A stretch of DNA of 64,000 bases from an uncultured Bacteroidota bacterium (GCA_903927505.1 CAIYNF010000128.1:39636-103635); one strand, 5' to 3'. Positions 10,248 to 52,673 are shown, counted from the first letter of the stretch. The notes: generated from the letters alone by a model not told the origin. Made by a program: numbers and translations.

Positions 10248-11489
10248 CTATTTTTCCATACAAACCTGTAGGATATTGTAACAAACTTCCACAGCTTTTT
10301 CCATATCCTGCACACTTACATATTCTTGCTTGCTGTGAATCCCCATTTCTCCTGTAAATATATTTGGGCATGGCAATCCCATAAACGAAAGGCGCGATCC
10401 ATCTGTTCCTCCTCTGATGTTTTGAATAGAAGCCTTTAAGCCACTTAATTGGTAAGCTTCCTCTGCAAATTTCATTACATGTAGTTGCTGGTCTAATATC
10501 TCGCGCATGTTTCTATATTGCTCCTGAACGCTAATAGAATAAGTAGCTCCAGGGAATTTGGCAATAGCTGTTTTTGCAATTTCTTCCAAACGATTTTCGT
10601 ACTCGCTTAATTTTTTTGTATCAAAATCACGTACAATAAATTGCACTTTTGCTTCTTCCAATCCACCTTCCATGTGCACGGGATGCACAAAACCTTCATA
10701 GCCTGAAGTTTGCTCTGGACACCAAGAATCACTTGGTAATAAGCTAATAAAATATGCTGCTACTTTCTGTGCATTAACCATCTTATTTTTTGCATAACCT
10801 GGATGTGCGCTAATACCATTAAAAACCAAGGTACAGCCATCTGCAGAAAACGATTCACCTTCTAAGTGTCCGCGCTCTCCGCCATCTAACGTATAACCAA
10901 AATCTGCACCTAATTTCTCCATATTCACCTTGTTTACACCTCTGCCAATTTCCTCATCAGGTGTAAATAAAATGCGCACCTTACCATGCGGAATGCTAGA
11001 ATTAGCCATTAAATAATTAGCCAAATCCATAATTATGGCAACACCCGCTTTGTCATCGGCACCAAGCAATGTATGGCCAGATGCAGTGATAATATCATCA
11101 CCTATGCGCTCTTTTAAATAGCTGTGTTTTTCTTTACTAATTACAACATTTGGTTCGTTGGGTAATACAATATCCGAACCATCATAATTTTTATGAAGAA
11201 TAGGAATAACGTTTGTGCCGCTGCAATCTGGCGCTGTATCTACGTGCGCGCAAAAGCATACTACAGGCGCTTTTGAATTTCCAGTTGCTGGAATAGTTGC
11301 ATACACATATCCATATTCATCCAATTCCGCATCTGCAATTCCCATTGCTTTAAGTTCTGAAACTAAAACGGCACTTAAGTCTTTTTGCTTCATAGAGCTT
11401 GGCTGTGTCTCCGAATTTGGATCAGCAGTAGTATCAATTTGAACATAGCGCATAAAGCGTTCTGCAAGGGTGCTTTGGTAGTTATTCAT
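10248..11489 (-). CDS. pepT: peptidase T (tripeptide aminopeptidase), M20 family
   Basis: 413 aa with a PepT-like N-terminus (LAERFMRYVQIDT) and M20 metal-binding regions (HVDTAPD, GADDKAG). Confidence 0.82.
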   Translation of the reverse strand: MNNYQSTLAERFMRYVQIDTTADPNSETQPSSMKQKDLSAVLVSELKAMGIADAELDEYGYVYATIPATGNSKAPVVCFCAHVDTAPDCSGTNVIPILHKNYDGSDIVLPNEPNVVISKEKHSYLKERIGDDIITASGHTLLGADDKAGVAIIMDLANYLMANSSIPHGKVRILFTPDEEIGRGVNKVNMEKLGADFGYTLDGGERGHLEGESFSADGCTLVFNGISAHPGYAKNKMVNAQKVAAYFISLLPSDSWCPEQTSGYEGFVHPVHMEGGLEEAKVQFIVRDFDTKKLSEYENRLEEIAKTAIAKFPGATYSISVQEQYRNMREILDQQLHVMKFAEEAYQLSGLKASIQNIRGGTDGSRLSFMGLPCPNIFTGEMGIHSKQEYVSVQDMEKAVEVCYNILQVCMEK

Positions 11490-11571
11490 GTTTTGCTTTT
11501 GAAAATAAAATCAAATTAAAGCAAATTTCTAGCAAATAATTAAACGAAATTTCCGCTCAATGTTTGTAAAT

Positions 11572-11605
11572 TTTGATTGTTCTAATAATTAAATATTTAA
11601 CTTTG
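11572..11605 (+). promoter_or_regulatory. candidate Bacteroidetes sigma-A promoter (-33 TTTG / -7 TAACTTTG) for the FN3-repeat cargo gene
   Basis: TTTG at 11572-11575 and an exact TAnnTTTG -7 box (TAACTTTG) at 11598-11605. The ATG follows at 11613. Confidence 0.35.
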
Positions 11606-11612
11606 AAATTCT

Positions 11613-14234
11613 ATGAAATTTCTACTTTCTTATATACTATTGGCTTTTGTGTTTTTCGGTTCGAACCAAAGCTATGCCATCAATGCACCAGTTAATAATA
11701 GCCCTGTAAATGGATCGTCTTTCAGTAAATTTGATATTTTTATATATGTAAATGCCGTAACAGGGGCAAAGGGTTACCAATTTCAAATTGATACCCTTAG
11801 TAGTTTCAATAGTTTAGGTTTAATTAAGGATACAACCCAAAACCAGTATGTTTATTCGCCTTTATTAAAAATTGGAAAAACCTATTTTTGGCGTGCCCGT
11901 GCTTACTCCGGAGCAGATACTTCGGTATGGTCTTCCACATGGTCTTTTACTACCACAAATGCTACGCAAACTTTAAACTCTCCAGCAAACAATACCACAG
12001 GTCCAATTGTACTTTTACGGCCTATGGGCGCTAGCAGTGTGGCAAGTATAAATTATATCATAGAAGTTGATACTAACATCAATTTAAATTCACCCATCAA
12101 GGTAGTTAGAACCCAAAACAATACCAATTTTACAGATTCTGTTCTGTTTGGATATGGTAGAAATTTATACTGGCGCGCCAAATCTTACAGCAGTTTTGGC
12201 GATACCTTCCAATGGTCGGGTATATATAAATATACCATCCATACACAACCTACATTAAATGGAAACCCAAGCACCCTATTAATGGTTGACCCAAAAATAA
12301 CTCCCAATTGGACCAATGTTGGTTTGTCTAGCATTCACCTGCAGTTAGATACTACTATGAGTTACAATACTTCGCGATTAATAGACCATATTATTCCTCC
12401 AGGTTACAATGCCGATACCATTTATAATTTATTTTTTGGCAAGGATTACTTCTATCGCATTCGTTGCGAATACCAAGGAAAAGTATCAACCTGGTCGTTT
12501 AATCAACCAATTAGGGTAAAGACAAATGGGTATTTAAGTTCGCCTTCAAATGGCTCAACAGTATACGGACTAAGCACAAACTTCGGATGGAGTGCCTTAA
12601 ATGGAACAAAATACCATTTCATACTATTTGGTGATTCTGCCGAAACAATTGTGCTAAAAGATACCATTACCAATATTGGAAATTACAGCTATAAAAATGA
12701 ATTAAAGTTAAATAAATGGTACCACTATAAGGTAACGTATTTTCACGATTTAGATGCAGCAAGCACGCTCACAGCTTACTTTAAAACCTATACTGGCATG
12801 GTAAATATTGGCGCACCCTATGCCAATGCTACCAATGTTTCTGTTCGCCCTCGTTTAAATTTTAGGAAGCAAACTTGGGGCACAGGTTATATTATGGAAA
12901 TAGATACTGGTGCTGCTTTTACAAGTACTCACAGTCCTTTTTATATTCGTATTATAGATAGTTTTAATTACGACGGATCTTATTACCATTACAAGGATAC
13001 TTCTTTGTTATACGGACAAAAATATGTTTGGCGTGTAGCTGCTTTAAAAGGAACAGATACGGCCGAAGCAACAACCAATAATTTTACAACAGCGGCTTTT
13101 CCTTTTAATTATTATCCTCCTAACAATTATATTGGAACAGGAACTTCTACCAATGGTTTGGTAACTGGAATTACTGGCTCTACTTGGATTCAATGGGAAT
13201 TAGATTCATCCCTTAATTTTAATTCTCCACTTAGAATTAGTGGCACAGATCCGCATATTCCAGATGATTTTACCCCAGCCTATGTTGGGCTTAATTTTAG
13301 TCCCGACTTAAATTTTGAAACCAAATATTATTGGCATGCGCGCTGCATCAATGCTGTGGATACAGGGAATTGGGGCAATGCATTTAACTTTTTAACAACC
13401 CAACCTGTTTGGGCTATAAATCCAATAAATGGTGCAAGCAATATTGCTACCAGTGTGAATTTACAATGGGGCGTTCAAGGAAGTACATCTGAATTAGTTT
13501 TCCAATACCAAGCAAGCAAAGATTCAAATTTTGTTGGTACACCTATTATGTCGCTTGCCGCCAATGCCTCTCCAAACGCCACTATTAGCTGTCAATATGC
13601 AACTAAATACTTTTGGCGTGCCCGTGCAATTAATGAAAAGGATACCAGCAATTGGTCGCCCAATTTTAATTTCACCACACAAAATCCTCCCACCATTGCA
13701 AGGCCTCAATTGTTATTACCTGCAAATGGTGCCAGCAATGTAAAGCTAGGAAATATTACGCTGGTTTGGTCGGCAGTAAGCAATGCATTTAGTTATGATG
13801 TACAAGTTTCAGACACATCAGACTTTTCAACAATTATTGCTTCAGGAACAACGGCAGGTACCTCAAGTATTTTTACAGGAGCTACCAAACAAAAAACATA
13901 TTATTGGCGTGTGAGAGGAAAAATAGTAGATTATGCAGGGCAATGGGCATTTCCTTATTTGTTCGAAACAGGCGTTCCTATAGGAATTTCAGAAGTTAAT
14001 AAACCAATGAATGACCTAATTTTTCCAAATCCAACAAATCATCAATTTACTATTCAAAGTGCTGGAAACTTTTCGTTTCAAGTGTTTTCAAATGAGGGTA
14101 AATTGGTTTTCGGTTCGAGCCAAAACCGCGATGAAGCCATTGTTGATACTGATAATTGGGCAGCAGGACTCTATATAATTTGCATTGAAAAGGAGGGTGT
14201 AAAAAGCAAGCAAAAAATGCAAGTAATAAAATAA
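11613..14234 (+). CDS. secreted multi-repeat (fibronectin-III-like) protein with a T9SS C-terminal sorting domain
   Basis: Signal peptide MKFLLSYILLAFVFFGSNQSYA. Roughly eight ~100-aa repeats share Y(F/Y)WR(A/V)R...W..F(T)T. The C-terminal ~80 aa (FPNPTNHQFTIQ...LYIICIEKEGVKSKQKMQVIK) matches the Por/T9SS CTD pattern. Confidence 0.7.
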   Translation: MKFLLSYILLAFVFFGSNQSYAINAPVNNSPVNGSSFSKFDIFIYVNAVTGAKGYQFQIDTLSSFNSLGLIKDTTQNQYVYSPLLKIGKTYFWRARAYSGADTSVWSSTWSFTTTNATQTLNSPANNTTGPIVLLRPMGASSVASINYIIEVDTNINLNSPIKVVRTQNNTNFTDSVLFGYGRNLYWRAKSYSSFGDTFQWSGIYKYTIHTQPTLNGNPSTLLMVDPKITPNWTNVGLSSIHLQLDTTMSYNTSRLIDHIIPPGYNADTIYNLFFGKDYFYRIRCEYQGKVSTWSFNQPIRVKTNGYLSSPSNGSTVYGLSTNFGWSALNGTKYHFILFGDSAETIVLKDTITNIGNYSYKNELKLNKWYHYKVTYFHDLDAASTLTAYFKTYTGMVNIGAPYANATNVSVRPRLNFRKQTWGTGYIMEIDTGAAFTSTHSPFYIRIIDSFNYDGSYYHYKDTSLLYGQKYVWRVAALKGTDTAEATTNNFTTAAFPFNYYPPNNYIGTGTSTNGLVTGITGSTWIQWELDSSLNFNSPLRISGTDPHIPDDFTPAYVGLNFSPDLNFETKYYWHARCINAVDTGNWGNAFNFLTTQPVWAINPINGASNIATSVNLQWGVQGSTSELVFQYQASKDSNFVGTPIMSLAANASPNATISCQYATKYFWRARAINEKDTSNWSPNFNFTTQNPPTIARPQLLLPANGASNVKLGNITLVWSAVSNAFSYDVQVSDTSDFSTIIASGTTAGTSSIFTGATKQKTYYWRVRGKIVDYAGQWAFPYLFETGVPIGISEVNKPMNDLIFPNPTNHQFTIQSAGNFSFQVFSNEGKLVFGSSQNRDEAIVDTDNWAAGLYIICIEKEGVKSKQKMQVIK
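11658..11667. repeat. GGTTCGAACC palindromic decamer (exact)
   Basis: Coding, frame 1: it encodes FGSNQ in the signal peptide of the FN3-repeat cargo gene. Confidence 0.9.
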
Positions 14235-17160: not shown

Positions 17161-17235
17161 GGTGGAATACCGGGCTCGAACCGGCGACCTCCTGAACCAC
17201 AATCAGGCGCTCTAACCAACTGAGCTAAAACCACC
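17161..17235 (-). tRNA. tRNA-His (anticodon GTG)
   Basis: Minus-strand cloverleaf with D-arm GCTCAGTTGGTTAGAGC, anticodon stem-loop CCTGA-TTGTGGT-TCAGG (anticodon GTG) and T-arm GCCGG-TTCGAGC-CCGGT. There is an extra 5' G(-1) opposite C73, which is the hallmark of tRNA-His. The CCA end is not fully encoded. Confidence 0.8.
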
Positions 17236-31424: not shown

Positions 31425-31639
31425 GCCCACAAAGATGCATTTTCTTGTGGGATTTGAAAAACAACGCACTATTTTGAATAGCATTTTTGCCGTATAAAAA
31501 CATTTGCAAAATTTGCAAAAGAAAATGAAGGCGCTTGCATCAATCAATTATTACAGGCAATTCAAATGGCCTATTTTTGCCTCATTACTTGCATATTAGC
31601 AAATTTTAATACTATCTTTATACCCGTAACAATACAATC

Positions 31640-32614
31640 ATGAAAAAATTAATTCTTCTACCATTGGTTATTTTCTGTTTAATACCTTTCATAGGTAAAG
31701 CACAAGACGTAATGATCTTAAGATTTAAGGCCGATTCACTCAAAGTGAAAATCATTGAAATTGGTACTGATGAAATTAAATACAAGCTTTGGCCAGTTGA
31801 AGAAAGTATGCCAATAATGGTTGAAAGCAAAGACCGCGTAAAACGTATTATTCTTGCCAATGGAACTGTAATGCGTTTCTCTGAAAATGAATTTATGAAC
31901 GCCAATAATTACAGCAGCCAACGCAAAATGGCTGTTAAAATAGATATGTTCTCATTTTTATATGGAAGTACTTCTGTTGCCTTTGAGCAATCAATTGAAC
32001 CAGGCAGAAGTTGGGAAGTGGGTGTTGGCTTTATTGGCATGGGGTCAAACCTAAATAATGGTGGCGATTACAATTCTCGTTCTGGCGCATTCTTTAAAGG
32101 TGGATACAAGTTTATTAACCAACCAGATTATTATTTAAAAGGCATGCGTTACGCGCATGTAATGAAGGGCGCTTATATAAGACCTGAATTGGCTGTTAAT
32201 TTTTACAATACCATTGTAACAGGTACTTCTTATTCTTCAAGTCTCAATACAACTACAAATATGTATGATATTGTTAAAGAAAATAGAGAAACCAAGTATA
32301 GAAATTCAGCATTTGCCTTTTTATTGAATTTTGGCAAGCAATGGGTGTTTTCAGATATTTTCTTAGTAGATGCTTTTGCAGGAATTGGTCTAGGAATTGG
32401 AGATGAGAAAAAAGTTTCTTCAACTGTTACATCTATAACTAAAAGCTCCTCTCAATACAATCCATATTATTATGGTAGTGGCTCTTCTTACGATTATAAC
32501 CATTACAACCCAACTGGAACAGGATTTGCAACCAGCACGGATGGCACAGTTTATTTGGCCGGTTCTTGTGGATTAAAATTAGGCATCCTTATTGGTGCTA
32601 AAAAAATGGATTAG
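31640..32614 (+). CDS. secreted hypothetical protein, paralog A1 (N-terminal ~70-aa domain plus a putative OM beta-barrel)
   Basis: Signal peptide MKKLILLPLVIFCLIPFIGKAQD. Shares conserved blocks with the next two genes (QRKMA(V/I)K(I/M)DM, YYLKGMRYAH, FGKQWVFS). Confidence 0.5.
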   Translation: MKKLILLPLVIFCLIPFIGKAQDVMILRFKADSLKVKIIEIGTDEIKYKLWPVEESMPIMVESKDRVKRIILANGTVMRFSENEFMNANNYSSQRKMAVKIDMFSFLYGSTSVAFEQSIEPGRSWEVGVGFIGMGSNLNNGGDYNSRSGAFFKGGYKFINQPDYYLKGMRYAHVMKGAYIRPELAVNFYNTIVTGTSYSSSLNTTTNMYDIVKENRETKYRNSAFAFLLNFGKQWVFSDIFLVDAFAGIGLGIGDEKKVSSTVTSITKSSSQYNPYYYGSGSSYDYNHYNPTGTGFATSTDGTVYLAGSCGLKLGILIGAKKMD

Positions 32615-32627
32615 TTTCTTGTAAAGC

Positions 32628-33545
32628 ATGAAAAAACAATATATTCTTTTCTTCTTTTTTATTGCTCTTTTTGCTGCAAATAGTCAAGCGCAAGATAAAA
32701 TGGTATTGCGTGGAAGTGTTGATACACTTCAGGTTAAAGTAATTGAATTAGGGGTAAATGATATTCGATACAAAACTTGGCCTGTAGACGATAACATGCC
32801 CATGATGGTGGAGAAAAAGGAGAGAATTAAAAAGATTATTTTTGAAAATGGCACCATCATGAAATTTGCTGAGGACGAATTTTCTAACCAAGAAAATTAT
32901 GTAAACCAGCGCAAAATGGCCATTAAAATGGATATGTTAAGTCCTGTGCGTAAAGTGTTTTCAGGTTCATTTGAATATTCGCTTAAACCTGGTATGAGCG
33001 CAGAAATAGGAGTAGGAGTGATTGGTATTTCTTCTTATGATAATTTCTTTTACTCCTTCTCAGAATCAGATGGTGGATTTATACGTTTGGGACTAAAATT
33101 AATACGTACACCAGATTATTACCTCAAAGGAATGCGCTATGCGCATATATTAAAAGGTGGTTACCTACGACCAGAATTAATCTTTTTACGCCACGATAAT
33201 TTTGGATATAGCAGAGATTATTGGGGCAATGGCAGTGCACCTGATAAACAAGTGATAAAAGTTACCGGCTACGCCTTTATGCTCAACTTTGGCAAGCAAT
33301 GGGTTTTCTCCAATATCTTTTGCGTAGACCTTTTTACAGGTATTGGTATTGGCAAAAAGAAATGGGACTATTACTACAACGGTAATTTGGTTCCTAGCTC
33401 AGGTAACAATTATTTGGGATCATTAACTGGATTCGACGTAGGTGGCTTTGGCTTTGCAAATTTCTCCCCAGAAAGCAATAGCGTTGCGCTTTCTTATCAA
33501 GCAGGTTTAAAAATTGGTTTGTTAATTGGCGGACAAGCCAAATAA
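32628..33545 (+). CDS. secreted hypothetical protein, paralog A2
   Basis: Signal peptide MKKQYILFFFFIALFAANSQAQD and the same conserved blocks as A1. Confidence 0.5.
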   Translation: MKKQYILFFFFIALFAANSQAQDKMVLRGSVDTLQVKVIELGVNDIRYKTWPVDDNMPMMVEKKERIKKIIFENGTIMKFAEDEFSNQENYVNQRKMAIKMDMLSPVRKVFSGSFEYSLKPGMSAEIGVGVIGISSYDNFFYSFSESDGGFIRLGLKLIRTPDYYLKGMRYAHILKGGYLRPELIFLRHDNFGYSRDYWGNGSAPDKQVIKVTGYAFMLNFGKQWVFSNIFCVDLFTGIGIGKKKWDYYYNGNLVPSSGNNYLGSLTGFDVGGFGFANFSPESNSVALSYQAGLKIGLLIGGQAK

Positions 33546-33589
33546 TTTAATTCAATTTCATTTTTCAAATATTTCTTTATCTTTCCATA

Positions 33590-34534
33590 GTGAAACAGGT
33601 AAAGATTGGTTTCTTATTTTTCTTTCTATTGCTTACCCAATCCTCTTGGGCGCAAGACCTCATTATCCTTCATCCAAACAGAGATACCCTGCACGTTAAA
33701 GTACTACAAATTGCTGCACGTGAGGTTTATTACACCACTACAGATAGCCAAAGTCGGTTCGACCCAAAACAGATTAAAACAGATTTAGTAGCCAGAATTG
33801 TATATGCAAACGGTACTGTAATTAGGTTAATGGAAGGACAAACAATTGAAGCTAACTTTTTAGGAAACAGAAATTTTGCCATAAAAATAGATCCTTTCAT
33901 CCCTTTATATGGCAGTACCTATTTAGCCATTGAAAGTAGTTTAGCTGCCAGGAGAAGCATGGAAATTGGCATTGGTGTTATTGGTGCTGGTTTGGCGCAA
34001 GATGCATACCTAAATAGGAAAGGGGCGTTTGCGCGTTTTGCCTATACCTTTTATTTAACCACTTTTAGACCCAAGCTTATATTAAAGCAACATCTTTTAA
34101 GTGGTTGGTATTTGCGACCATCAATTATTGCCAATTATTTTGAACTCAATGAAGTTTTTTTTAATACCAGCGCTTATCAATACATCAACGGGCAATCAAA
34201 ATACACCATTAGAAATATGGATAAACGTTTTGCTCGGGGAAGTGCCGGAGTGCTTTTGAGTTTAGGAAAACAATGGGTATTTAAGAACAGAATTTCTCTG
34301 GATTTGAGCTACGGATTAGGCCTGGGATATGGCTATCAAAAAGTAATCAATGAAACCATTTCTTATACAGAATATTTAGGCTATGGTTGGCAGGATAAAA
34401 TAGTGGAAGTTTATGACGTGGGCGCGGGAACCGGCATTCATATTAACCACAATAATAAATTTGCTTTTGCCATGGAAGGTGGCGTAAGAATGGGGTTTTT
34501 AATTCACCGCAATAAAAAAGCAAAGGCCTTCTAA
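33590..34534 (+). CDS. secreted hypothetical protein, paralog A3 (more divergent)
   Basis: Signal peptide plus ANGTVIRL and LGKQWVFKN blocks that line up with A1 and A2. Confidence 0.45.
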   Translation: MKQVKIGFLFFFLLLTQSSWAQDLIILHPNRDTLHVKVLQIAAREVYYTTTDSQSRFDPKQIKTDLVARIVYANGTVIRLMEGQTIEANFLGNRNFAIKIDPFIPLYGSTYLAIESSLAARRSMEIGIGVIGAGLAQDAYLNRKGAFARFAYTFYLTTFRPKLILKQHLLSGWYLRPSIIANYFELNEVFFNTSAYQYINGQSKYTIRNMDKRFARGSAGVLLSLGKQWVFKNRISLDLSYGLGLGYGYQKVINETISYTEYLGYGWQDKIVEVYDVGAGTGIHINHNNKFAFAMEGGVRMGFLIHRNKKAKAF

Positions 34535-34573
34535 AATGTATAAATAATTGGTGTACCTTGCTGTAACAAAACA

Positions 34574-35035
34574 ATGAATAAAATACTGCTCCTACTTTTT
34601 TCTCTTGTATTACTCTCCTCCTGTGGTGGAGGCGGTGATGGCTGTTATACCTATTATATTTATTCTACCGATATAAAATTTGCCGATACCAATGAAGTAA
34701 TTCATGTAATCACCTATCCAGATGTAAATATTACAGATACCATTGAAGCCAAAATTGCTAAGTTGAGAATCTCGGGAACCTTGCCAAGCAGAGCCATTGT
34801 TAGGAGCAGTAACCATGAATATGCCTTTACTTTTATGATGCAATTTTCTGTGAAGGCCGCAAGCAATGAAGACCCAACAGAGAACAATTATATCAAAACG
34901 TATAATGGGATTGAAATTAGAGAGAGCAACGCCATTTCTGCTAAAGTAAATACAACAACAGAATATGATTATTCTACTGGTTCTAGTTGCTGGGGTAGTA
35001 AGTATTTAGTTAAAGACCATGTGGTAGTGGAATGA
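34574..35035 (+). CDS. small lipoprotein, hypothetical
   Basis: MNKILLLLFSLVLLSSCGGGG, a lipobox followed by a Gly-rich linker. Confidence 0.45.
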   Translation: MNKILLLLFSLVLLSSCGGGGDGCYTYYIYSTDIKFADTNEVIHVITYPDVNITDTIEAKIAKLRISGTLPSRAIVRSSNHEYAFTFMMQFSVKAASNEDPTENNYIKTYNGIEIRESNAISAKVNTTTEYDYSTGSSCWGSKYLVKDHVVVE

Positions 35036-35691
35036 AAAAACTATTCCTACATATCTTAATTTTACAACTTGCTTGTTTTTCTGGCAGCGCACAATCCTTG
35101 CTATTGGAAGAGCCGGGTAATTTTATTGGCATACATGTCATTAGCAATTGGAACGCCCCGCTATTTGGCTCCTATTACCATATAAAAAAAGATGCTATTG
35201 GCTTTGGCATAAAAGCTGGACTTGGCGCTAAAAATGATGAGGGTTACGTGTATGAAGAGCCCTATAACAATACTTTAGGCTGGTCTGTGCTAAAATTTAA
35301 TTCAAGCTATTATTACCTTACGCCTGTTTTTATTCCAAGGGTTTTTAACAGAGAAAGTAAATTGTTTTTCTTAAGCATTGGTCTTCCAACAGGTTATTCA
35401 AAAGATCAGTTAATTATGAAAACCTCCAGCGATCCATTGTATGGTTCCATAACAAATACTTACCAGGAAACACATTTTTACCAAGGTGTGGAAGTAGAGT
35501 TACAATATTGGTTCGACATTGGACCCAGGCTTACATGGACAACGGGCATCAATACTGGAAAGTGCTTAATTGGTAAAGCGCCCTTTCAAGCGCAATTGTA
35601 TAATGGCAATGCATCAAACGTTTATTTTCCTGGTATGTCAAAGGGAATATATATCAACTTGCACCTTGGCTTAAGCTTTAAAATTAATTAA
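35032..35691 (+). CDS. secreted hypothetical protein (OM beta-barrel-like)
   Basis: Signal peptide MKKLFLHILILQLACFSGSAQS. The ATGA junction gives a 4-nt overlap with the upstream gene. Confidence 0.45.
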   Translation: MKKLFLHILILQLACFSGSAQSLLLEEPGNFIGIHVISNWNAPLFGSYYHIKKDAIGFGIKAGLGAKNDEGYVYEEPYNNTLGWSVLKFNSSYYYLTPVFIPRVFNRESKLFFLSIGLPTGYSKDQLIMKTSSDPLYGSITNTYQETHFYQGVEVELQYWFDIGPRLTWTTGINTGKCLIGKAPFQAQLYNGNASNVYFPGMSKGIYINLHLGLSFKIN

Positions 35692-35692
35692 G

Positions 35693-36184
35693 ATGACTAG
35701 GAAAAGCATATTCTTTCTGGTCTTTTTATTTTGGTCAATTGGACACCTAGCAGCGCAGGTGCTTATTATGGAAAATAAGAATATCAATAAAGTTTATTCC
35801 CTAAAACCGGGCAGGGCATTTTTTGTTCAAACCCTTGATGATCCTGCAGGGTATAGTACCAAAGTTATTTTCCTTTCCTATAAAAATGATACCATAAATG
35901 TAAAAGCACCAGGTAGAAAAGGAAAGGTAATACACTTGCCCTTATCGCATATTGCGGCCTTTTACGTGCAAAAACCTATTGCCTATAAATTACTTCGATT
36001 GGGAGTGATTGCCTATGGCATTATTTTTACCATTACCGCTGTGGTAGATGCCATAGATGATGAATATTATGCCTTACCGGGTGTTTTTGTTTCATTGCCG
36101 CTTATAAAAATTGGTATTGATATGAAAACAAAAGACCGCATTAATATTTCCAATTACGATTTTTTTAATGTGCCGCTAAATTGA
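35693..36184 (+). CDS. hypothetical protein D1 (signal peptide plus C-terminal hydrophobic helices)
   Basis: Starts 2 nt after the previous stop. Similar architecture to D2. Confidence 0.4.
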   Translation: MTRKSIFFLVFLFWSIGHLAAQVLIMENKNINKVYSLKPGRAFFVQTLDDPAGYSTKVIFLSYKNDTINVKAPGRKGKVIHLPLSHIAAFYVQKPIAYKLLRLGVIAYGIIFTITAVVDAIDDEYYALPGVFVSLPLIKIGIDMKTKDRINISNYDFFNVPLN

Positions 36185-36744
36185 GAGCTTTATTTTTCAT
36201 ATTGATTATGTATAGTTTGCCGCTCATGGCGCAGAATATGGAGAAACCCCAAGTGTTTTTTACCAATAAAAACTTTGGCACCACCAGAGGCTATGCCATG
36301 CACAGAACTTGTGTGGTGAAATTAAAATCTAAGCCCAATCAAACAAATGTATTTCCAAAGGCAATAGACAAATCAGGATTACTATTTAACCTGCGCCTCA
36401 CACAACAAAATGGATTGGAATTGGTGTTTAACGACAGCATTCACCTACAATACAATGAAATAGAATACTTGGTTTTTCAGGACAGAAAAAACAGCAATAA
36501 ATCCTTGTTGGCAGCAAGTATGATAGTTGCATTGGGTTATGGCATGGCCTATTCTAAAGGAACAGCCTTAATTGTTGGATTGGTTGTTGGTGTGGTTCCC
36601 ATCATCTTCTTAGCACAAATAAAAAGAGAGCGTATTTATACCCAAGATTGGAATTTAGACTTACAACATACACCGCAGTTGTATTACCCCAATAACCAAC
36701 ATTTATATTATAAATATTGGCCAGATTTGTTTGAACGGTATTAA
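36181..36744 (+). CDS. hypothetical protein D2 (signal peptide plus C-terminal hydrophobic helices)
   Basis: 4-nt overlap with D1. It is the last gene of the co-directional cluster. Confidence 0.4.
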   Translation: MRALFFILIMYSLPLMAQNMEKPQVFFTNKNFGTTRGYAMHRTCVVKLKSKPNQTNVFPKAIDKSGLLFNLRLTQQNGLELVFNDSIHLQYNEIEYLVFQDRKNSNKSLLAASMIVALGYGMAYSKGTALIVGLVVGVVPIIFLAQIKRERIYTQDWNLDLQHTPQLYYPNNQHLYYKYWPDLFERY

Positions 36745-36745
36745 A

Positions 36746-37360
36746 TTAATCGTTTAAATTTCCTTTTCCTTCGCGCACAATGATAGGTTCATCGTTGCTA
36801 CAATCAATAATGGTTGAAGGAGTTGTATCGCCCGCACCACCATCAATAACAAGGTCTACCAGGTGTTCAAATTTCTCATGAATTTCTTCTGGATCGGTCA
36901 TGTATTCTATAATAACATCCTCATGGTGAATACTGCTTACCACCAATGGCGAATCCAATTCTTTGATAATGGTTTGCGCAATGGCATTGTCTGGCACCCT
37001 AATACCAATTGTTTTTCTATTGCCAGCAAAGAGTTTGCTTACATGGTTATTGGCCTTTAAAATAAAAGTAAAAGCACCTGGTAAATTGTTTTTAAGCAAG
37101 CGGAAAATATGCTTGTCAATAGGAGCGGTGAGGTCGGAGATATGCGTTAAATCTGCACACAAGAGCGAATAGTTTACTTTCTCGGCCTTCTTTCCCATAA
37201 TTTTACTCATGCGTTCAATTCCTTTTTTCGAATCCATTTTGCAGGCCATGGCATAAATGGTATCGGTAGGAATAATAATTACCCCATCACGGTTTAATAC
37301 GTCAAGCACCTTTTTCAGCTCACGCGGATTGGGATTTTTAGGATGCAGTTCAAGTAGCAT
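36746..37360 (-). CDS. tsaC: L-threonylcarbamoyladenylate synthase (YrdC/Sua5 family)
   Basis: 204 aa with YrdC-domain features (IIIPTDTIYAM..., GIRVPD...). Confidence 0.72.
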   Translation of the reverse strand: MLLELHPKNPNPRELKKVLDVLNRDGVIIIPTDTIYAMACKMDSKKGIERMSKIMGKKAEKVNYSLLCADLTHISDLTAPIDKHIFRLLKNNLPGAFTFILKANNHVSKLFAGNRKTIGIRVPDNAIAQTIIKELDSPLVVSSIHHEDVIIEYMTDPEEIHEKFEHLVDLVIDGGAGDTTPSTIIDCSNDEPIIVREGKGNLND

Positions 37361-47689: not shown

Positions 47690-48547
47690 CTAATTTGTTT
47701 TAAACAATAAAGCCAATTGAAAATAATGATGTGCCATTTGAAAGCGATCAAAATCGCCAGCAGTGCGGTAAGCTTCCCAATTATAACCCAAGCGCAGGAT
47801 ATTGCCATTGGGGTAATACAAATCGTAATGAAGCGCAGAACTCATCCTAAAACCAGAAAAAGCATGGTATTGATACCCATCGGTGAGCCGTGTTTGGTTG
47901 CTAATGGTACTGGCATTGGTGTAGGCATACCCATTTCTATAAGTATTGTTCATGAGCGGCAAATTCAATTGGTATGAAAGAATGCGCGTTTTAGGCTTTA
48001 AGTGGTAAGAAATAAGTAAAAAGCGCCCTTGCTTCTCTTTTTTTCTGCTTATATCGTAGCTCATTTTGGCCGAACCAAACAAGGTATTGAACATCTCTAA
48101 ACCAAAGGCATTGTTTTGTAAACCGGGGTTCATACGCATATTGCCTGTGATATCTAGACTACCACCCAATTTAAAATTCCATTTTTCTCCCAGCTTGAGC
48201 GGAACTTGGTACAAGCGGGTATAAGCCAAATAAGGCGTGTTTACGGTGCTGCCAAATGTTTGTTGATCGGCAACAAGTTTAAAGGTAGCAGATGAAAAGC
48301 CAAAATACATTTTTGTTTCTCTGCGTGCCGAGCTCCTTAAGAAAGCAAGGTCAAAACGCATAGCCGATGTTGAATAGGGCAGTGCCGAGGTGGCAAAATC
48401 TGTAAAGTATGCATTGTCGAACCCAGCGCCAACTTGAATAAATTTGGTTTTGGAAGTGCTGGCAACATTGGTTTGCGTAGCTATTGGCGCCTGGCTATAA
48501 AGCAGGCAGGGCAACAAAGTACACAGGGTAAAAAAGATGTTTCTCAT
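47690..48547 (-). CDS. hypothetical outer-membrane beta-barrel-like protein
   Basis: Signal peptide MRNIFFTLCTLLPCLLYSQA. Alternating aromatic/hydrophilic strands, C-terminal ...LLFKTN. Confidence 0.4.
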   Translation of the reverse strand: MRNIFFTLCTLLPCLLYSQAPIATQTNVASTSKTKFIQVGAGFDNAYFTDFATSALPYSTSAMRFDLAFLRSSARRETKMYFGFSSATFKLVADQQTFGSTVNTPYLAYTRLYQVPLKLGEKWNFKLGGSLDITGNMRMNPGLQNNAFGLEMFNTLFGSAKMSYDISRKKEKQGRFLLISYHLKPKTRILSYQLNLPLMNNTYRNGYAYTNASTISNQTRLTDGYQYHAFSGFRMSSALHYDLYYPNGNILRLGYNWEAYRTAGDFDRFQMAHHYFQLALLFKTN

Positions 48548-48714
48548 CTACTTATAAATTATTGGTTCAATAATATACAAAAAAGAAAAACTTCCCCCTT
48601 TACAAGAACAGATTTTGCAAAAAATGCAAAAATTACATCGCCTTCATTGTCTGCATGCTGCAAAAAAAACTTGCCATTCTATTTTTATTTGGTTAATATA
48701 AATGACCAATAAAA

Positions 48715-48731: not shown

Positions 48732-49877
48732 ATGCAATCACTTATCGCACATATGGATCTCGATAGCTTTTTTGTTTCGGTGGAGCGCCTAGAAAATTCA
48801 GCCCTCAAGGGGAAGCCTGTCATTATTGGCGGTTTCTCCGACCGGGGTGTTGTGGCCAGTTGCAGTTACGAGGCGCGCTCCTTTGGGGTACATGCGGCCA
48901 TGCCCACCAAACTAGCGCGGCGCTTATGTCCGCAAGCAATTTGGATACGTGGCGATATGGACAAATACAGCAAACTCTCACATACCGTAACAGAAATTAT
49001 TGAAGAAGCGGCGCCCTTGGTAGAAAAGGCGTCTATAGATGAACATTACTTAGATGTAACGGGCTTAGACCGCTTTTTTGGCACCTACAAATGGATGCAT
49101 GAATTGCGGCAACGCATTATCAACGAATCTGGTTTGCCCATTTCATTTGGTTTATCTGTAAACAAAACCGTTTCTAAAATTGCCACCGGAGAAGCCAAGC
49201 CCAATGGCGAAAAAGAAGTGCAGGAAGCTTTTGTAAAACCTTTTCTGTTTCCGCTTTCCATTAAAAAAATACCCGGGATTGGAGATAAATCATACCATAC
49301 CCTGCGCGATATGGGCATTGTATACATTGAAACCTTGGCCAATATGCCCATTGAATTGCTGGGAAAAGTAATGGGCGAAAACGGCAAAGTAATTTGGGAG
49401 AAAGCCAATGGGATCGACAATAGACCTGTGGAGCCTTACCACGAACAAAAGTCAATTGGTTCGGAACGAACCTTTGAAACAGATACCACAGACATGAAAT
49501 TACTCCAACATACCTTGGCAAAAATGGTACAAGATATTTGCTTTGATATGCGCAAACAAAACAAGCTCTGCGCCACAGTAACCGTTAAAATTCGCTACTC
49601 AGATTTTCAAACGCATACCATGCAAAAAAGCATTCCGTATACGGCTTACGACCATGTAATCTTACAAGCCGCAAAAGAATTGCTGGCTAAAGTGTACGAC
49701 CGCCGCTTGCTCATTCGGCTCATTGGTGTAAAGCTAAGCAAGCTGGTGTATGGCGCCCAACAAATAGATCTTTTTGAAGACAGCGAAGAATTAGTAAAAC
49801 TCTACCAAGCCTTAGACCAAATTAAATTTTGGTACGGGAAAAAAGCGGTAGGAAAGGGGATAGATCACCGTAAATAA
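48732..49877 (+). CDS. dinB: Y-family DNA polymerase IV (DinB-like; catalytic residues present)
   Basis: MDLDSFFVSVE and SIDEHYLD motifs, which contain the catalytic D/DE residues. Length of 381 aa is typical. Confidence 0.85.
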   Translation: MQSLIAHMDLDSFFVSVERLENSALKGKPVIIGGFSDRGVVASCSYEARSFGVHAAMPTKLARRLCPQAIWIRGDMDKYSKLSHTVTEIIEEAAPLVEKASIDEHYLDVTGLDRFFGTYKWMHELRQRIINESGLPISFGLSVNKTVSKIATGEAKPNGEKEVQEAFVKPFLFPLSIKKIPGIGDKSYHTLRDMGIVYIETLANMPIELLGKVMGENGKVIWEKANGIDNRPVEPYHEQKSIGSERTFETDTTDMKLLQHTLAKMVQDICFDMRKQNKLCATVTVKIRYSDFQTHTMQKSIPYTAYDHVILQAAKELLAKVYDRRLLIRLIGVKLSKLVYGAQQIDLFEDSEELVKLYQALDQIKFWYGKKAVGKGIDHRK

Positions 49878-49945: not shown

Positions 49946-51070
49946 TTACTCTAAATCCTTATTCAATTTGGTGAGTCGTATTTTCATAATATTATTCTCG
50001 TCATGAAAACTACTTGCAAAAATCCAGGTATCTGGGCCGGCAGGTCCAAAACTTTGATTAACTCCATTTTCATATGGAATTGGATATTTTTTTAGCACTT
50101 TATAATCCTTGCTCAAATTACAAACATATCCTCTATTTAGATTATTTTGAGAAGAACTAAAAACAGTATAACCATTCAGCTGGTTAATGAAAATTTGGTT
50201 AGCATAAATACCTAAATATTTGGTGGTATTATCTTCCAAAACAAGACTCATTCCGGGTAGTGCGTATAAGTTAGAATCCAATAATTTGAAATAAAAACCA
50301 CCTGCATATTGTGATTCGAGAAGTTCTTCATATAGAGTGGATCCTCCCCATTGATATATTTTCCGGTAGCTCTTTGAAACACTTACATTAATTACATTAA
50401 ATCCCCAAACAAAAAGTTTTTTATTACAATAACCAATAGCAGTTACACAATCTGGTCCTCCACCCATTTGTAAAGTATCAACCACCCATAAAGGATTAGT
50501 TATATCTTGCCCGTAGGCAGCAAGAACAAATTTAGTGATACCACCTATTTTACCATTTGCAGCAAATAAAATTGTTTGATCCGGCCCAAGACATGTTTCG
50601 GAATTAACATAGTATGAATTATCAAAACCTATGTTTTTTTCAATGTTCACATTAATTTTTACCAATTCCAATGATGAATTTATTTCATATAGTGCTTCTC
50701 CCATTGTAAAATAAAACTTTTCTCCTCTTACAAAGGCACCAGGATTAAAATATGAATCACTTTCAAAAATTGCTGAATCCAACAGGTTTAAATCTTGGTC
50801 GTATTTTAGTAAATAAAGTTTTTTTGAATTGTCATATCTTCCAAAAATGACAAAACTTTGGTCAGGAAGAGTTATAAATTCATTTGGATATAAAATTAAA
50901 CCAACATAAGGTAAAACGATTGATTTAATTGGGTCTGGAGGGTTGTTAAATAAAGTTGGCCTTTTGCAGGAAATATTGATAATGATTGTAAGGCAAATTA
51001 TTAGTGCCAATTTTTTAAAATAAAAAAATTGCATAATAATGGATTTTGATTTGTCTAAATAATATTTCAT
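49946..51070 (-). CDS. hypothetical lipoprotein
   Basis: A hydrophobic leader ends in ...IINISC (a lipobox-like Cys). Tyr/Asn-rich, beta-propeller-like composition. Confidence 0.4.
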   Translation of the reverse strand: MKYYLDKSKSIIMQFFYFKKLALIICLTIIINISCKRPTLFNNPPDPIKSIVLPYVGLILYPNEFITLPDQSFVIFGRYDNSKKLYLLKYDQDLNLLDSAIFESDSYFNPGAFVRGEKFYFTMGEALYEINSSLELVKINVNIEKNIGFDNSYYVNSETCLGPDQTILFAANGKIGGITKFVLAAYGQDITNPLWVVDTLQMGGGPDCVTAIGYCNKKLFVWGFNVINVSVSKSYRKIYQWGGSTLYEELLESQYAGGFYFKLLDSNLYALPGMSLVLEDNTTKYLGIYANQIFINQLNGYTVFSSSQNNLNRGYVCNLSKDYKVLKKYPIPYENGVNQSFGPAGPDTWIFASSFHDENNIMKIRLTKLNKDLE

Positions 51071-51110
51071 TCTTGTTTTTTTTAGTAAAATATTTCAAAC
51101 ATATTTTTAT

Positions 51111-52673
51111 TTATAATTTATTTATTTTAAAACTAATTTGATTGATTGGATTAATATCAAGACCAAATAAATCAGATCCAATAATATTCGCTTCTGCGCA
51201 TTTAATTACAAAAGTATTATTAAACACCCCGTTTACATTAATTCTATCAATTTTACTAACGCAACCAATAACATTTACTGTTTTTGAATTAGATGGTAAG
51301 TTTGGACTTAAGTCTATTTTAACACCAAAATGTAATTTATTAATTTTGGTATATTTATTATTAGCAGCTATAAAAGTATTTCCAATTAGATTTATTAATA
51401 ATTGATCATTGGTTTCATAATGGCAATAAATAGAATACCCCAAATTGGCTTCAAACCATGACTTTGAAATGTTTATTACATCTGTAATTGGCAGATCTGG
51501 ATTTTCGGGTGGTGGTGGTGGTGCAGAATTTCTCGGATAAATTCTCAACGCTCCAGTATTTGGGTCGCCATCTACCGGAACATATTTAGTAGTTTCAGAA
51601 TTAGTTAAATACCATCCATTTACTTCAAAAGTGCAATTCTCAATATGTAACATGGAGCCCTTGGAATATTGCAATCCCCAATTCCTACACCAAACAATTC
51701 TAGATTCAAATATAGAAATTTGGTTTGCAGAATAAGACGCAGAGCTATCTAATATTATTCCGTTGAAACACGCTTGACTTGGGTTGTAAAACGTGTGTTC
51801 CTGAGGATCTGGATCAGAAGTATCAGTCCATTCATTTTCTCCGCCAATAACGCAATTGTTTATATTGGATGTAAGTACTCCTTTAAAATTTATTGCAGTT
51901 TGGCATGACCTAACAAAAACTCGTTCAATGTTTAGGAAAGCACAATTTTCGGCATAAATTCCTATAAATTCATATCCTGGTCCATAATAAAATGGTGGCG
52001 CTATTTCTAAGTTATTATGATAATACGAACCCTCGATTAAAGGACTTCCGGCAATTCCGAAATCTTTTAAATTTGTGTATGGGTTAAATACTTCAATTAA
52101 ATTTCTTGTTGTAATAATTGATGAAGCAATTGGTTCTTCCTCGGAGGGGAAATAAGATGTGTTTCCCACAAATATAGTTGATAGCATTCCACTTCCTACC
52201 AGGTTTACTCTTAATGTTTCTCCCCTCCATTTTATTTGAGCTGAAGAGTTATCTGCTTTTATAGAAATAGTATCAATAAGGTAAAATCCTGCTGGGAAAA
52301 ATAAGCCACCAGAACTTTCAGAAATAGTTTGATTGGCAGCATTTGGATATGCATTAGAATAATATTTCTGCATAGAATCTATTGCATTTTGGATATTTGT
52401 TGTATCATTTGTGGGCGTTAAATTGTCTGGAAAAGCATCGCCTTTCACTCCAAACCACTTTACGTTAATCAATCCATCAAATATTCGTTTTAATCTTGAG
52501 CCATTAAAAGTAACTATTACAATTCCAGTATTATCAGCACTTACTGTATCGTGCAAATCATATCGCCAAAATCCTTCTTGCCCAATATCTGTAGTATAAT
52601 ATAAATCAGATAATAAAGGTAAAAAAGTGGGGTCGTTTCTTAAGTATGAAATTGAATAATTAAATGTTGCCAT
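51111..52673 (-). CDS. right-handed parallel beta-helix (pectate-lyase superfamily, PF12708-like) protein
   Basis: INVKWFGVKGDA...NIQNAIDS resembles the N-terminal signature of Pectate_lyase_3 / tailspike-like proteins. Asn/Gly/Ile-rich repeats. Confidence 0.45.
   Translation of the reverse strand: MATFNYSISYLRNDPTFLPLLSDLYYTTDIGQEGFWRYDLHDTVSADNTGIVIVTFNGSRLKRIFDGLINVKWFGVKGDAFPDNLTPTNDTTNIQNAIDSMQKYYSNAYPNAANQTISESSGGLFFPAGFYLIDTISIKADNSSAQIKWRGETLRVNLVGSGMLSTIFVGNTSYFPSEEEPIASSIITTRNLIEVFNPYTNLKDFGIAGSPLIEGSYYHNNLEIAPPFYYGPGYEFIGIYAENCAFLNIERVFVRSCQTAINFKGVLTSNINNCVIGGENEWTDTSDPDPQEHTFYNPSQACFNGIILDSSASYSANQISIFESRIVWCRNWGLQYSKGSMLHIENCTFEVNGWYLTNSETTKYVPVDGDPNTGALRIYPRNSAPPPPPENPDLPITDVINISKSWFEANLGYSIYCHYETNDQLLINLIGNTFIAANNKYTKINKLHFGVKIDLSPNLPSNSKTVNVIGCVSKIDRINVNGVFNNTFVIKCAEANIIGSDLFGLDINPINQISFKINKL

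Follow-up and report, generated by a model that had tools for sequence, protein, structure and literature searches.

Domain-extended, DUF3575-like outer-membrane proteins and an undescribed five-gene envelope cassette at one locus of an uncultured Bacteroidota bacterium

The envelopes of Bacteroidota differ from the proteobacterial model (Q-rule, surface lipoproteins, expanded β-barrel assembly machinery (BAM)), and many outer-membrane (OM) proteins of this phylum are without an assigned role. In the literature consulted, the DUF3575 family appears only in tables of expression data and of outer-membrane-vesicle (OMV) proteomes, and once near fimbrial genes. Here, a cluster of seven genes is described, located at 31640-36744 on the plus strand of a stretch of 64,000 nucleotides (nt) from an uncultured freshwater Bacteroidota bacterium; this whole stretch is called the window, and all positions refer to it. 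The locus is a domain-extended variant of a known, uncharacterized OM protein family, to which the A proteins belong, together with an undescribed five-gene envelope cassette, A3-D-E-F-G. The seven genes are as follows; a slash marks the predicted cleavage site of each signal sequence.

A1: 31640-32614, plus strand; 324 aa; signal peptide (GKA/QD), predicted SH3-like domain at about 22-80 and predicted 8-stranded OM barrel at 97-318 with long hairpins.
A2: 32628-33545, plus strand; 305 aa; paralog of A1 (44% identical), same predicted two-domain architecture.
A3: 33590-34534, plus strand; 314 aa, GTG start; divergent A paralog (32% to A1); first gene of the cassette.
D: 34574-35035, plus strand; 153 aa; lipoprotein with the lipobox LSS/C and a Gly-rich linker behind it; second cassette gene.
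E: 35032-35691, plus strand; 219 aa; signal peptide (GSA/QS); Gly- and aromatic-rich; putative small OM barrel.
F: 35693-36184, plus strand; 163 aa; signal peptide (LAA/QV), domain of about 75 aa, hydrophobic helix at about 100-118 and a weaker second helix, short tail with an RIY-type motif.
G: 36181-36744, plus strand; 187 aa, TTG start; signal peptide (LMA/QN), domain of about 85 aa, hydrophobic hairpin at about 108-147, WPDLFERY tail at the C-terminus; final cassette gene.

DUF3575 (PF12099) gave the only Pfam signal in the A proteins, and the match falls in the barrel region (17.0, 15.4, and 16.2 bits for A1, A2, and A3, respectively). Members of this family come from the same phylum and are found in OMVs. 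The A family differs from it in having an additional N-terminal SH3-like domain of about 60 aa, longer strands and loops, and a total length of 270-325 aa, as against the 177 positions of the Pfam model. In addition, the A genes lack the DUF3868 and fimbrilin neighbors seen in Bacteroides thetaiotaomicron. At the level of the fold, the predicted 8-stranded topology of A1 resembles those of CarO, the OmpA transmembrane domain, OprF-N, and Thermus TtoA (Foldseek probability 0.72-0.99, TMt 0.4-0.5), although the E-values are non-significant and the identities are 5-13%. Like CarO, A1 seems to have a sizeable extracellular extension, and like OmpA, it pairs a barrel with a periplasmic domain. The order of the domains is, however, reversed with respect to OmpA: the soluble domain of A1 is N-terminal and SH3-like, and not a C-terminal peptidoglycan-binding OmpA_C domain. 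The N-terminal domain itself can be superposed on Methanococcus Hfq, with an RMSD value of 1.8 Å over 49 residues and TM scores of 0.52/0.64. This likeness to SH3/Sm-like barrels is at the fold level only, since the identities are 10-23% and no SH3b or Sm match was found in Pfam.

The cassette can be compared with two kinds of envelope assembly. Complexes of a barrel with a surface lipoprotein are presented in a recent preprint as a hallmark of the Bacteroidetes (bioRxiv 10.1101/2025.01.31.636011). Like the Sus-like, BtuBG, and BamF-J BAM complexes, every cassette has a translationally coupled lipoprotein (D) and putative barrel (E), but E is small and unrelated to the TonB-dependent transporters. 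The list of parts, namely OM barrels, a lipoprotein, and inner-membrane-anchored periplasmic proteins without enzymes, also recalls the Tol-Pal and OmpA/Lpp-type tethers. This analogy is speculative, because there is no sequence or fold relation to TolA/B/Q/R, Pal, or Lpp and no proton-motive-force component. A preliminary description of the locus, made from the sequence alone, had stated that no described system matches it, and these comparisons lead to the same result.

The seven genes are two neighboring units and not one evolutionary unit. This was observed in 15 related loci sharing the flanking genes (gyrB 87-97% identical where the contig reaches gyrB). In all 15, the interval from gyrB/asparaginase to Sua5 holds one to three A genes, and none of D-G is present. 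The whole seven-gene block was seen only in the window species (loci L001 and L006). A1-type orthologues occur throughout the clade, and A2-type genes follow A1-type genes in the related genomes. In a neighbor-joining tree, the A1-type and A2-type clades each have orthologues across the syntenic loci. A3, in contrast, forms a clade apart from both, together with the A gene of the L086 cassette and a gene of L090; the signature of this clade is H(I/L)L(N/S)GWYLRP.

Collinear copies of the cassette, with the same 4-nt overlaps, were found in no fewer than three further lineages and also at a second site in the genome. In L086/L087, genes for proteins of 322, 154, 222, 163, and 188 aa are collinear with A3-D-E-F-G, with identities of 35, 36, 47, 35, and 42%, respectively. 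They show the same -4 overlaps and lie between glnS and a CBS gene, and the same metagenome-assembled genome (MAG) also holds a gyrB locus (L008) with three A genes. In L089, D'-E-F-G adjoins Sua5 as in the window, and L091/L088 carries D-E-F-G. Since relatives hold A genes without D-G, the cassette is found elsewhere, and the A3 clade is separate in the tree, A1-A2 is considered to be an old resident pair and A3-D-E-F-G a separate, relocatable cassette. Conservation of all seven genes as one unit was not found; conservation of the neighborhood, which had been suggested as a check, holds for the A3-D-E-F-G part.

The relatives of the cassette were recovered by an exhaustive phmmer search with G, which gave four relatives, all aligned from residue 1. 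Word-indexed searches had returned only the own clusters of E and F (97-99% identity), as if these were species-restricted orphans, and this view was overturned by the phmmer search. In a metagenome scan, the E alignment gave no match and the G alignment one locus. Clustering of the neighbors around 81 A-family loci revealed no conserved partner beyond local synteny.

Two of the related loci have a different content. In L010, an unrelated 272-aa OM-protein-like gene (11009-11827), whose product ends in SLRF, occupies the position held by A2 in most relatives. In L030, an A-type barrel gene (713-1522) encodes a different N-terminus without the SH3-like domain; here a D-like lipoprotein gene follows two A genes.

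The paralogy of the A proteins, as previously proposed, is clear from BLASTP: A1 and A2 are 44% identical (E 1e-80), and A1 and A3 are 32% identical (E 6e-40). The shared blocks that had been quoted, QRKMA.K.DM, YYLKGMRYAH, and FGKQWVFS, are exact in A1 and A2, whereas A3 has NRNFAIKIDP, FRPKLILKQH, and LGKQWVFK at these places. The A family comprises 135 protein clusters. It was found at 199 genomic loci belonging to Marinilabiliales, Lentimicrobiaceae, Prolixibacteraceae, Saprospiraceae, and freshwater Bacteroidia; the N-terminal domain is retained by the shorter relatives too, which are about 270 aa long. It should be mentioned that two Bacteroidota-like contigs with A genes, L015 and L070, were deposited as MAGs of the cyanobacterium "Vulcanococcus limneticus" and of "Chitinophaga pinensis", respectively. 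L015 has the gyrB synteny and L070 does not, and at least for L015 this is probably a binning or labeling error.

Ten of 44 A-family members match DUF3575 at E<=0.01, all below the threshold, with a best E-value of 1.8e-4. The A protein of the L086 cassette, which is 35% identical to A3 and belongs to the same clade, passes the cut-off (22.8 bits, E 6.4e-5, profile positions 15-158 of 177). From the sub-threshold matches in A1-A3 and the above-cut-off match in this orthologue, the A family is considered to be a divergent, domain-extended branch of DUF3575. The preliminary description had weighed its proposal against the case that the proteins are members of a known family not conserved as a cluster. 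One half of this case applies, because the A barrels are distant relatives of DUF3575, but the other half does not: two sub-clusters are conserved elsewhere. No OmpA_membrane or C-terminal OmpA domain was matched in any of the seven proteins at E<=1 in Pfam or NCBIfam.

The fold was computed for A1, with an AlphaFold2 model built on the 44-sequence alignment (pLDDT 84.9, pTM 0.72). The model has six short strands in residues 23-79, a linker, and eight long strands in 97-318. The latter are at 97-102, 110-120, 123-132, 145-161, 177-203, 208-237, 241-270, and 305-318, and strands 5-7 are 27-30 residues long. As modeled, A1 is a two-domain protein composed of an SH3-like small β-barrel and an 8-stranded OM barrel. 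By homology, A2 and A3 would share this fold. The proposed architecture of an N-terminal domain followed by an OM β-barrel was thus reproduced for A1. In a Foldseek search of the PDB, the best true-fold matches of A1 were the 8-stranded barrels CarO (probability 0.99, TMt 0.47), the OmpA transmembrane domain, OprF-N, and TtoA. The N-terminal domain alone gave a model of roughly 60 residues with a pLDDT of 83.7. It matched Hfq/Sm, a myosin SH3-like domain, Sla1 SHD1, and a designed SH3 barrel (probability up to 1.0, TM 0.52-0.65, RMSD 1.8 Å); with 2qtx the probability was 1.00.

Because the number of strands is even, both ends of the barrel would be on the periplasmic side, which places the SH3-like domain in the periplasm in the model. 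The most conserved A motifs, PDYYLKGMRYAH at 162-173 and FGKQWVF at 231-237, seem to lie at periplasmic turns. When A1 of the window is compared with that of strain L006, which is 95% identical to the window, all 25 of the 25 amino-acid differences fall in 137-141, 192-215, and 253-292; these segments correspond to the predicted extracellular halves. On this predicted topology, such a pattern is typical of an anchor protein that is exposed at the surface and whose periplasmic face is conserved. The synonymous divergence (dS) between the same two strains is about 0.27-0.29 in A1 and A2, accompanied by indels, and 0.06-0.15 in A3 to G. The higher divergence of A1 and A2 could be caused by surface diversification or by recombination.

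For the other four cassette proteins (D-G), as well as for their orthologues, no match was obtained with Pfam, NCBIfam, PADLOC, PHROGs, or the PDB sequences, and profile searches of the PDB sequences gave nothing below E 0.07. Comparison of D-G with the profiles of the A N-terminal domain and barrel by HHalign, both as single sequences and as profiles, gave probabilities of at most 6%, except for one match of a signal peptide. E was likewise not detectable as an A-type barrel. No relatives of E or A were found in viral contigs. Since there is neither a meaningful PADLOC or PHROG match nor a relative in viral contigs, a phage, defense-island, or moron origin was rejected.

D has the lipobox L-S-S-C at residues 14-17 and a weak LPAM_1 match, in line with the 153-aa Gly-linker lipoprotein first proposed, and the lipobox Cys is invariant in four homologues. 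Its homologues are 36% (L086), 46-47% (L091), and 35% (L030, partial) identical, and the ratio of nonsynonymous to synonymous divergence (dN/dS) against L006 is 0.06. The 4-nt overlap between the stop codon of D and the start codon of E is kept in every cassette. The residues starting at the lipid Cys are CGGGGDG in D of the window, CGQGDDG in L086, CGGYDDG in L091, and CTSADEYD in L030. An acidic pair, loosely reminiscent of a lipoprotein export signal but shifted to +5/+6, is found in three D homologues, and D of the window has only one Asp. According to experiments, the optimal lipoprotein export signal of Bacteroidota is C-X-K-(D/E)2, at +3 to +5 (PMC5080379).

E is the best conserved protein of the cassette, with identities of 47, 36, and 41% in L086, L089, and L091, respectively. 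It has the invariant blocks NAP, YYY.TP..IP, DP..G, E.E..YW, APFQ, and YPGM, and its last strand, HLGLSFKI, is β-signal-like. Judged by this sequence pattern, E is probably a second small OM barrel. F has homologues in L086, L089, and L091 at 32-35% identity. According to hydropathy, both F and G have one strong hydrophobic helix and one weaker helix following a domain of 75-85 aa, and the WPDLFERY tail of G is conserved in its relatives. These two proteins had been described as related paralogs. They do share an architecture (signal peptide, domain of about 75-85 aa, hydrophobic hairpin, and tail), but paralogy could not be demonstrated: the BLASTP E-value is 0.83, and the HHalign profile-profile probability is 28% with 70 in-register columns.

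All seven open reading frames (ORFs) are on the plus strand, with junctions of +13, +44, +39, -4, +1, and -4 nt, in agreement with the tight, co-directional packing first reported. The dN/dS values against L006 are 0.05-0.20 in all seven genes. Because this means purifying selection in all seven frames, the ORFs are real coding genes and not chance ORFs. For G, the public gene calls use the ATG at 36208, giving 178 aa, whereas the TTG at 36181 gives 187 aa. The TTG start is preferred, because the homologues align from residue 1 of this form and because it restores the signal peptide and the -4 overlap of the other cassettes.

Every product carries an N-terminal signal sequence in its translation, as had been stated. 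The six signal-peptidase I (SPI) sites are all of the form A/Q: KA/QD in A1, QA/QD in A2, WA/QD in A3, SA/QS in E, AA/QV in F, and MA/QN in G. According to the "Q-rule" of Bacteroidota, Gln occupies position +1 after the Sec/SPI cleavage site (PMC5837995). All six SPI substrates conform to this rule, and Q22 is invariant in 44 of 44 A-family members. The earlier view that everything encoded here is located in the envelope is thus consistent with export signals on all seven products. None of the seven has a recognized catalytic motif, cytoplasmic domain, or energy-coupling element.

The upstream neighbors of the cluster are gyrB and the asparaginase II gene (minus strand), and the downstream neighbors are Sua5/YrdC and sucC (minus strand). 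The stop codons of G and of the convergent Sua5/YrdC gene are 1 nt apart (36742-36748), and the same abutment is seen in L089; this leaves no intergenic space for terminators between the two genes. Terminator-like hairpins between the genes of the cluster were at chance level in a terminator scan. In Rfam, the only match was a tRNA at 17161-17234, and no RNA element was found within the cluster or close to it.

The divergent intergenic region between the asparaginase gene and A1 is 215 nt long (31425-31639), if the 342-aa asparaginase start of the gene callers is used. The TGCAAA-type palindromes noticed there in the preliminary description were located exactly. Two features of this region are considered here.

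31503-31519, no strand assigned: tandem palindrome TTTGCAAA-A-TTTGCAAA, candidate operator, exact match.
31572-31579, plus strand: TATTTTTG (TAnnTTTG), candidate Bacteroidota-type -7 box, roughly 60 nt ahead of the ATG of A1.

TAnnTTTG is the -7 promoter consensus of Bacteroidota, and TATTTTTG is the only such sequence in the 215-nt region. The first A gene of L003, L004, L009, L010, and L011 is likewise preceded by a variant of the palindrome, TTTGCAAA-N-(W)WTGCAAA. In all six loci, that is, the window and these five, the center of the palindrome is exactly 65 nt upstream of the TAnnTTTG box, measured center to center. This spacing was kept while the intervening sequence diverged among the six, which suggests a conserved activator or operator site with its promoter. 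L017 has a variant of the palindrome with three mismatches, and no TAnnTTTG box follows downstream. A scan for sigma-70-type promoters gave results at chance level. Taken together, these features support a promoter for A1 that is regulated and conserved. A second copy of the motif, TTTGCAAAAAATGCAAA, is located at 48614-48630 and is identical to the L009 version. It lies in the divergent region between a gene for a 285-aa signal-peptide OM-protein-like product (47690-48547, minus strand, no Pfam match) and dinB (48732-49877), and may belong to the same regulon as the A genes.

The locus is best explained, with moderate confidence, by two envelope-protein units side by side, in which the cassette forms a structural or tethering assembly and not a transporter. 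Their site would be a variable "outer-membrane-protein slot" flanked by gyrB/asparaginase II on one side and Sua5/sucC on the other. A1 and A2 would be an ancient tandem pair; as structural or surface proteins that are anchored in the membrane and carry a periplasmic module for interactions, they would act like OmpA/OmpX-class small barrels and not as channels. The cassette would contribute one A-type barrel, the small lipoprotein D, E as the probable second barrel of small size, and F and G, each with a cleavable signal peptide, a periplasmic domain, and a membrane hairpin. Its assembly might join the OM components (A3, E, and D) to the inner-membrane-anchored periplasmic proteins (F and G). 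The five products most probably act together, because the block is inherited and relocated with translationally coupled junctions. A structural envelope assembly is favored because there is no cytoplasmic, enzymatic, or energy-coupling component.

Several observations weigh against this interpretation. The Foldseek E-values are non-significant, both for the A1 barrel (E >= 0.017) and for the N-terminal domain (E >= 0.13); because of the latter value, homology of the N-terminal domain to any one SH3/Sm family is not established. With their DUF3575 scores, the A proteins of the window stay below the 21.1 bits required by the gathering cut-off. E is taken as a barrel only from its sequence pattern, and a β-amphipathicity script was discarded since it found one of eight known strands in a positive control. 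In addition, L090 (195-1060) has a G homologue with an A3-type gene after it, which reverses the order seen in the window. The composition of the cassette is therefore not fixed, as the A3-type gene comes after G and not before D; on this short contig, the order suggests tandem cassettes or an alternative arrangement. Finally, the cassette was seen in few uncultured lineages, so that the conservation statistics are thin.

It seems unlikely that the locus is instead a turnover hotspot of independent OM or surface proteins, with the cassette genes hitch-hiking and having no joint function. The content of the slot does vary, from one to three A genes, with the unrelated gene of L010 and the A gene without the N-terminal domain in L030. 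Moreover, solitary A homologues are found in more than 60 other Bacteroidota loci without conserved neighbors. However, the D-E-F-G order and the 4-nt overlaps are kept at 29-47% protein identity and at two genomic sites. Such constancy would hardly be expected unless the block is under selection.

A reading in which the products are surface-variation, adhesin, or phage-receptor proteins seems distinctly improbable. According to this reading, the variable extracellular hairpins of the A proteins would be under diversifying phage or grazer pressure, and the paralog array would provide antigenic or receptor diversity. The elevated dS and the indels of A1 and A2 relative to A3-G, the confinement of all A1 strain differences to the predicted extracellular halves, and the great length of three of the eight strands would fit it. 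On the other hand, dN/dS stays low (0.15-0.20), which gives no indication of positive selection, and no match was found in PADLOC, PHROGs, or viral contigs. The conserved periplasmic motifs and the cassette partners would also be left unexplained. Surface variation is compatible with the two-unit interpretation and does not exclude it.

The proposal of the preliminary description, that the seven genes are one operon forming a dedicated envelope transport or uptake module, with the barrels as channels and the lipoprotein and inner-membrane proteins as accessories, is held to be very unlikely. The close co-directional packing, the single promoter-like architecture upstream, the lack of above-chance terminators between the genes, and the export of all products are in its favor. 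Against it, the complete block is confined to one species, and in the relatives either A genes are present and D-G absent, or the cassette lies at another site. Eight-stranded barrels such as OmpA, OmpX, PagP, and CarO are not known to have an open pore, and the predicted A barrels are 8-stranded. No TonB-dependent transporter, SusD-like, permease, ATPase, or periplasmic binding protein family was matched; in Pfam and NCBIfam, the TonB_dep_Rec, Plug, CarboxypepD_reg, and SusD families are absent from all seven proteins. Since the barrels are small and transporter families are missing, a transporter is not likely.

An accessory role in a type V (FimA/Mfa1-like) pilus or in another surface fiber is hardly credible: a gene table of B. 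thetaiotaomicron does place DUF3575 genes beside DUF3868 genes and close to an Mfa1-type fimbrilin gene, only a few genes away (BT4227-BT4236; PMC10434189), and DUF3575 proteins occur in P. gingivalis OMV proteomes (PMC12937337), but no fimbrilin, DUF3868, or type IX secretion system (T9SS) C-terminal-domain match was found in the seven proteins or the cassette orthologues, mature D (about 135 aa) is much smaller than known fimbrilins, and the link to DUF3575 is marginal.

The two-unit interpretation can be extended, as a tentative and rather doubtful suggestion, to a more specific model. A3-D-E-F-G would be an undescribed, energy-independent trans-envelope complex limited to a freshwater Bacteroidia clade. 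In it, two small OM barrels, one of them with a periplasmic SH3-like adaptor, would be combined with a lipoprotein that is possibly exposed at the surface and with two proteins that have a hairpin in the inner membrane and a domain in the periplasm. The SH3-like + DUF3575-like A family, with about 200 Bacteroidota loci and no curated model, would then represent phylum-wide OM anchors whose conserved periplasmic face docks partners.

Two other regions should be mentioned. About 10 kb upstream of A1, according to the gene table of an 84-kb contig, and also in L003, there is a conserved block with a Porin_10 protein, two Por_Secre_tail proteins, and a 371-aa protein without a family. Since this block encodes Por_Secre_tail proteins, the organism is considered to have a T9SS; no T9SS tail was found in the seven products of the cluster. 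The region at 49946-52673 includes the lowest GC content of the window (0.307 for 50-52 kb, compared with about 0.36 elsewhere) and contains a 374-aa lipoprotein-like ORF and a 520-aa ORF.

The gain in knowledge is modest, and no surprising mechanism was demonstrated. The locus defines a two-domain OM protein family, SH3-like + DUF3575-like barrel, which occurs in Bacteroidales/Marinilabiliales, Lentimicrobiaceae, Saprospiraceae, and freshwater Bacteroidia and was missed by the curated libraries. It also defines a five-gene cassette, conserved as a block, in which all the proteins are exported and four are without a family, as well as a conserved spacing of candidate operator and promoter in front of the A genes. 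If the cassette does not form a complex, the result would be a clean annotation of several "hypothetical protein" families, and cultured relatives exist in which A-family knockouts could be made. If it does form a complex, this would be a new envelope assembly.

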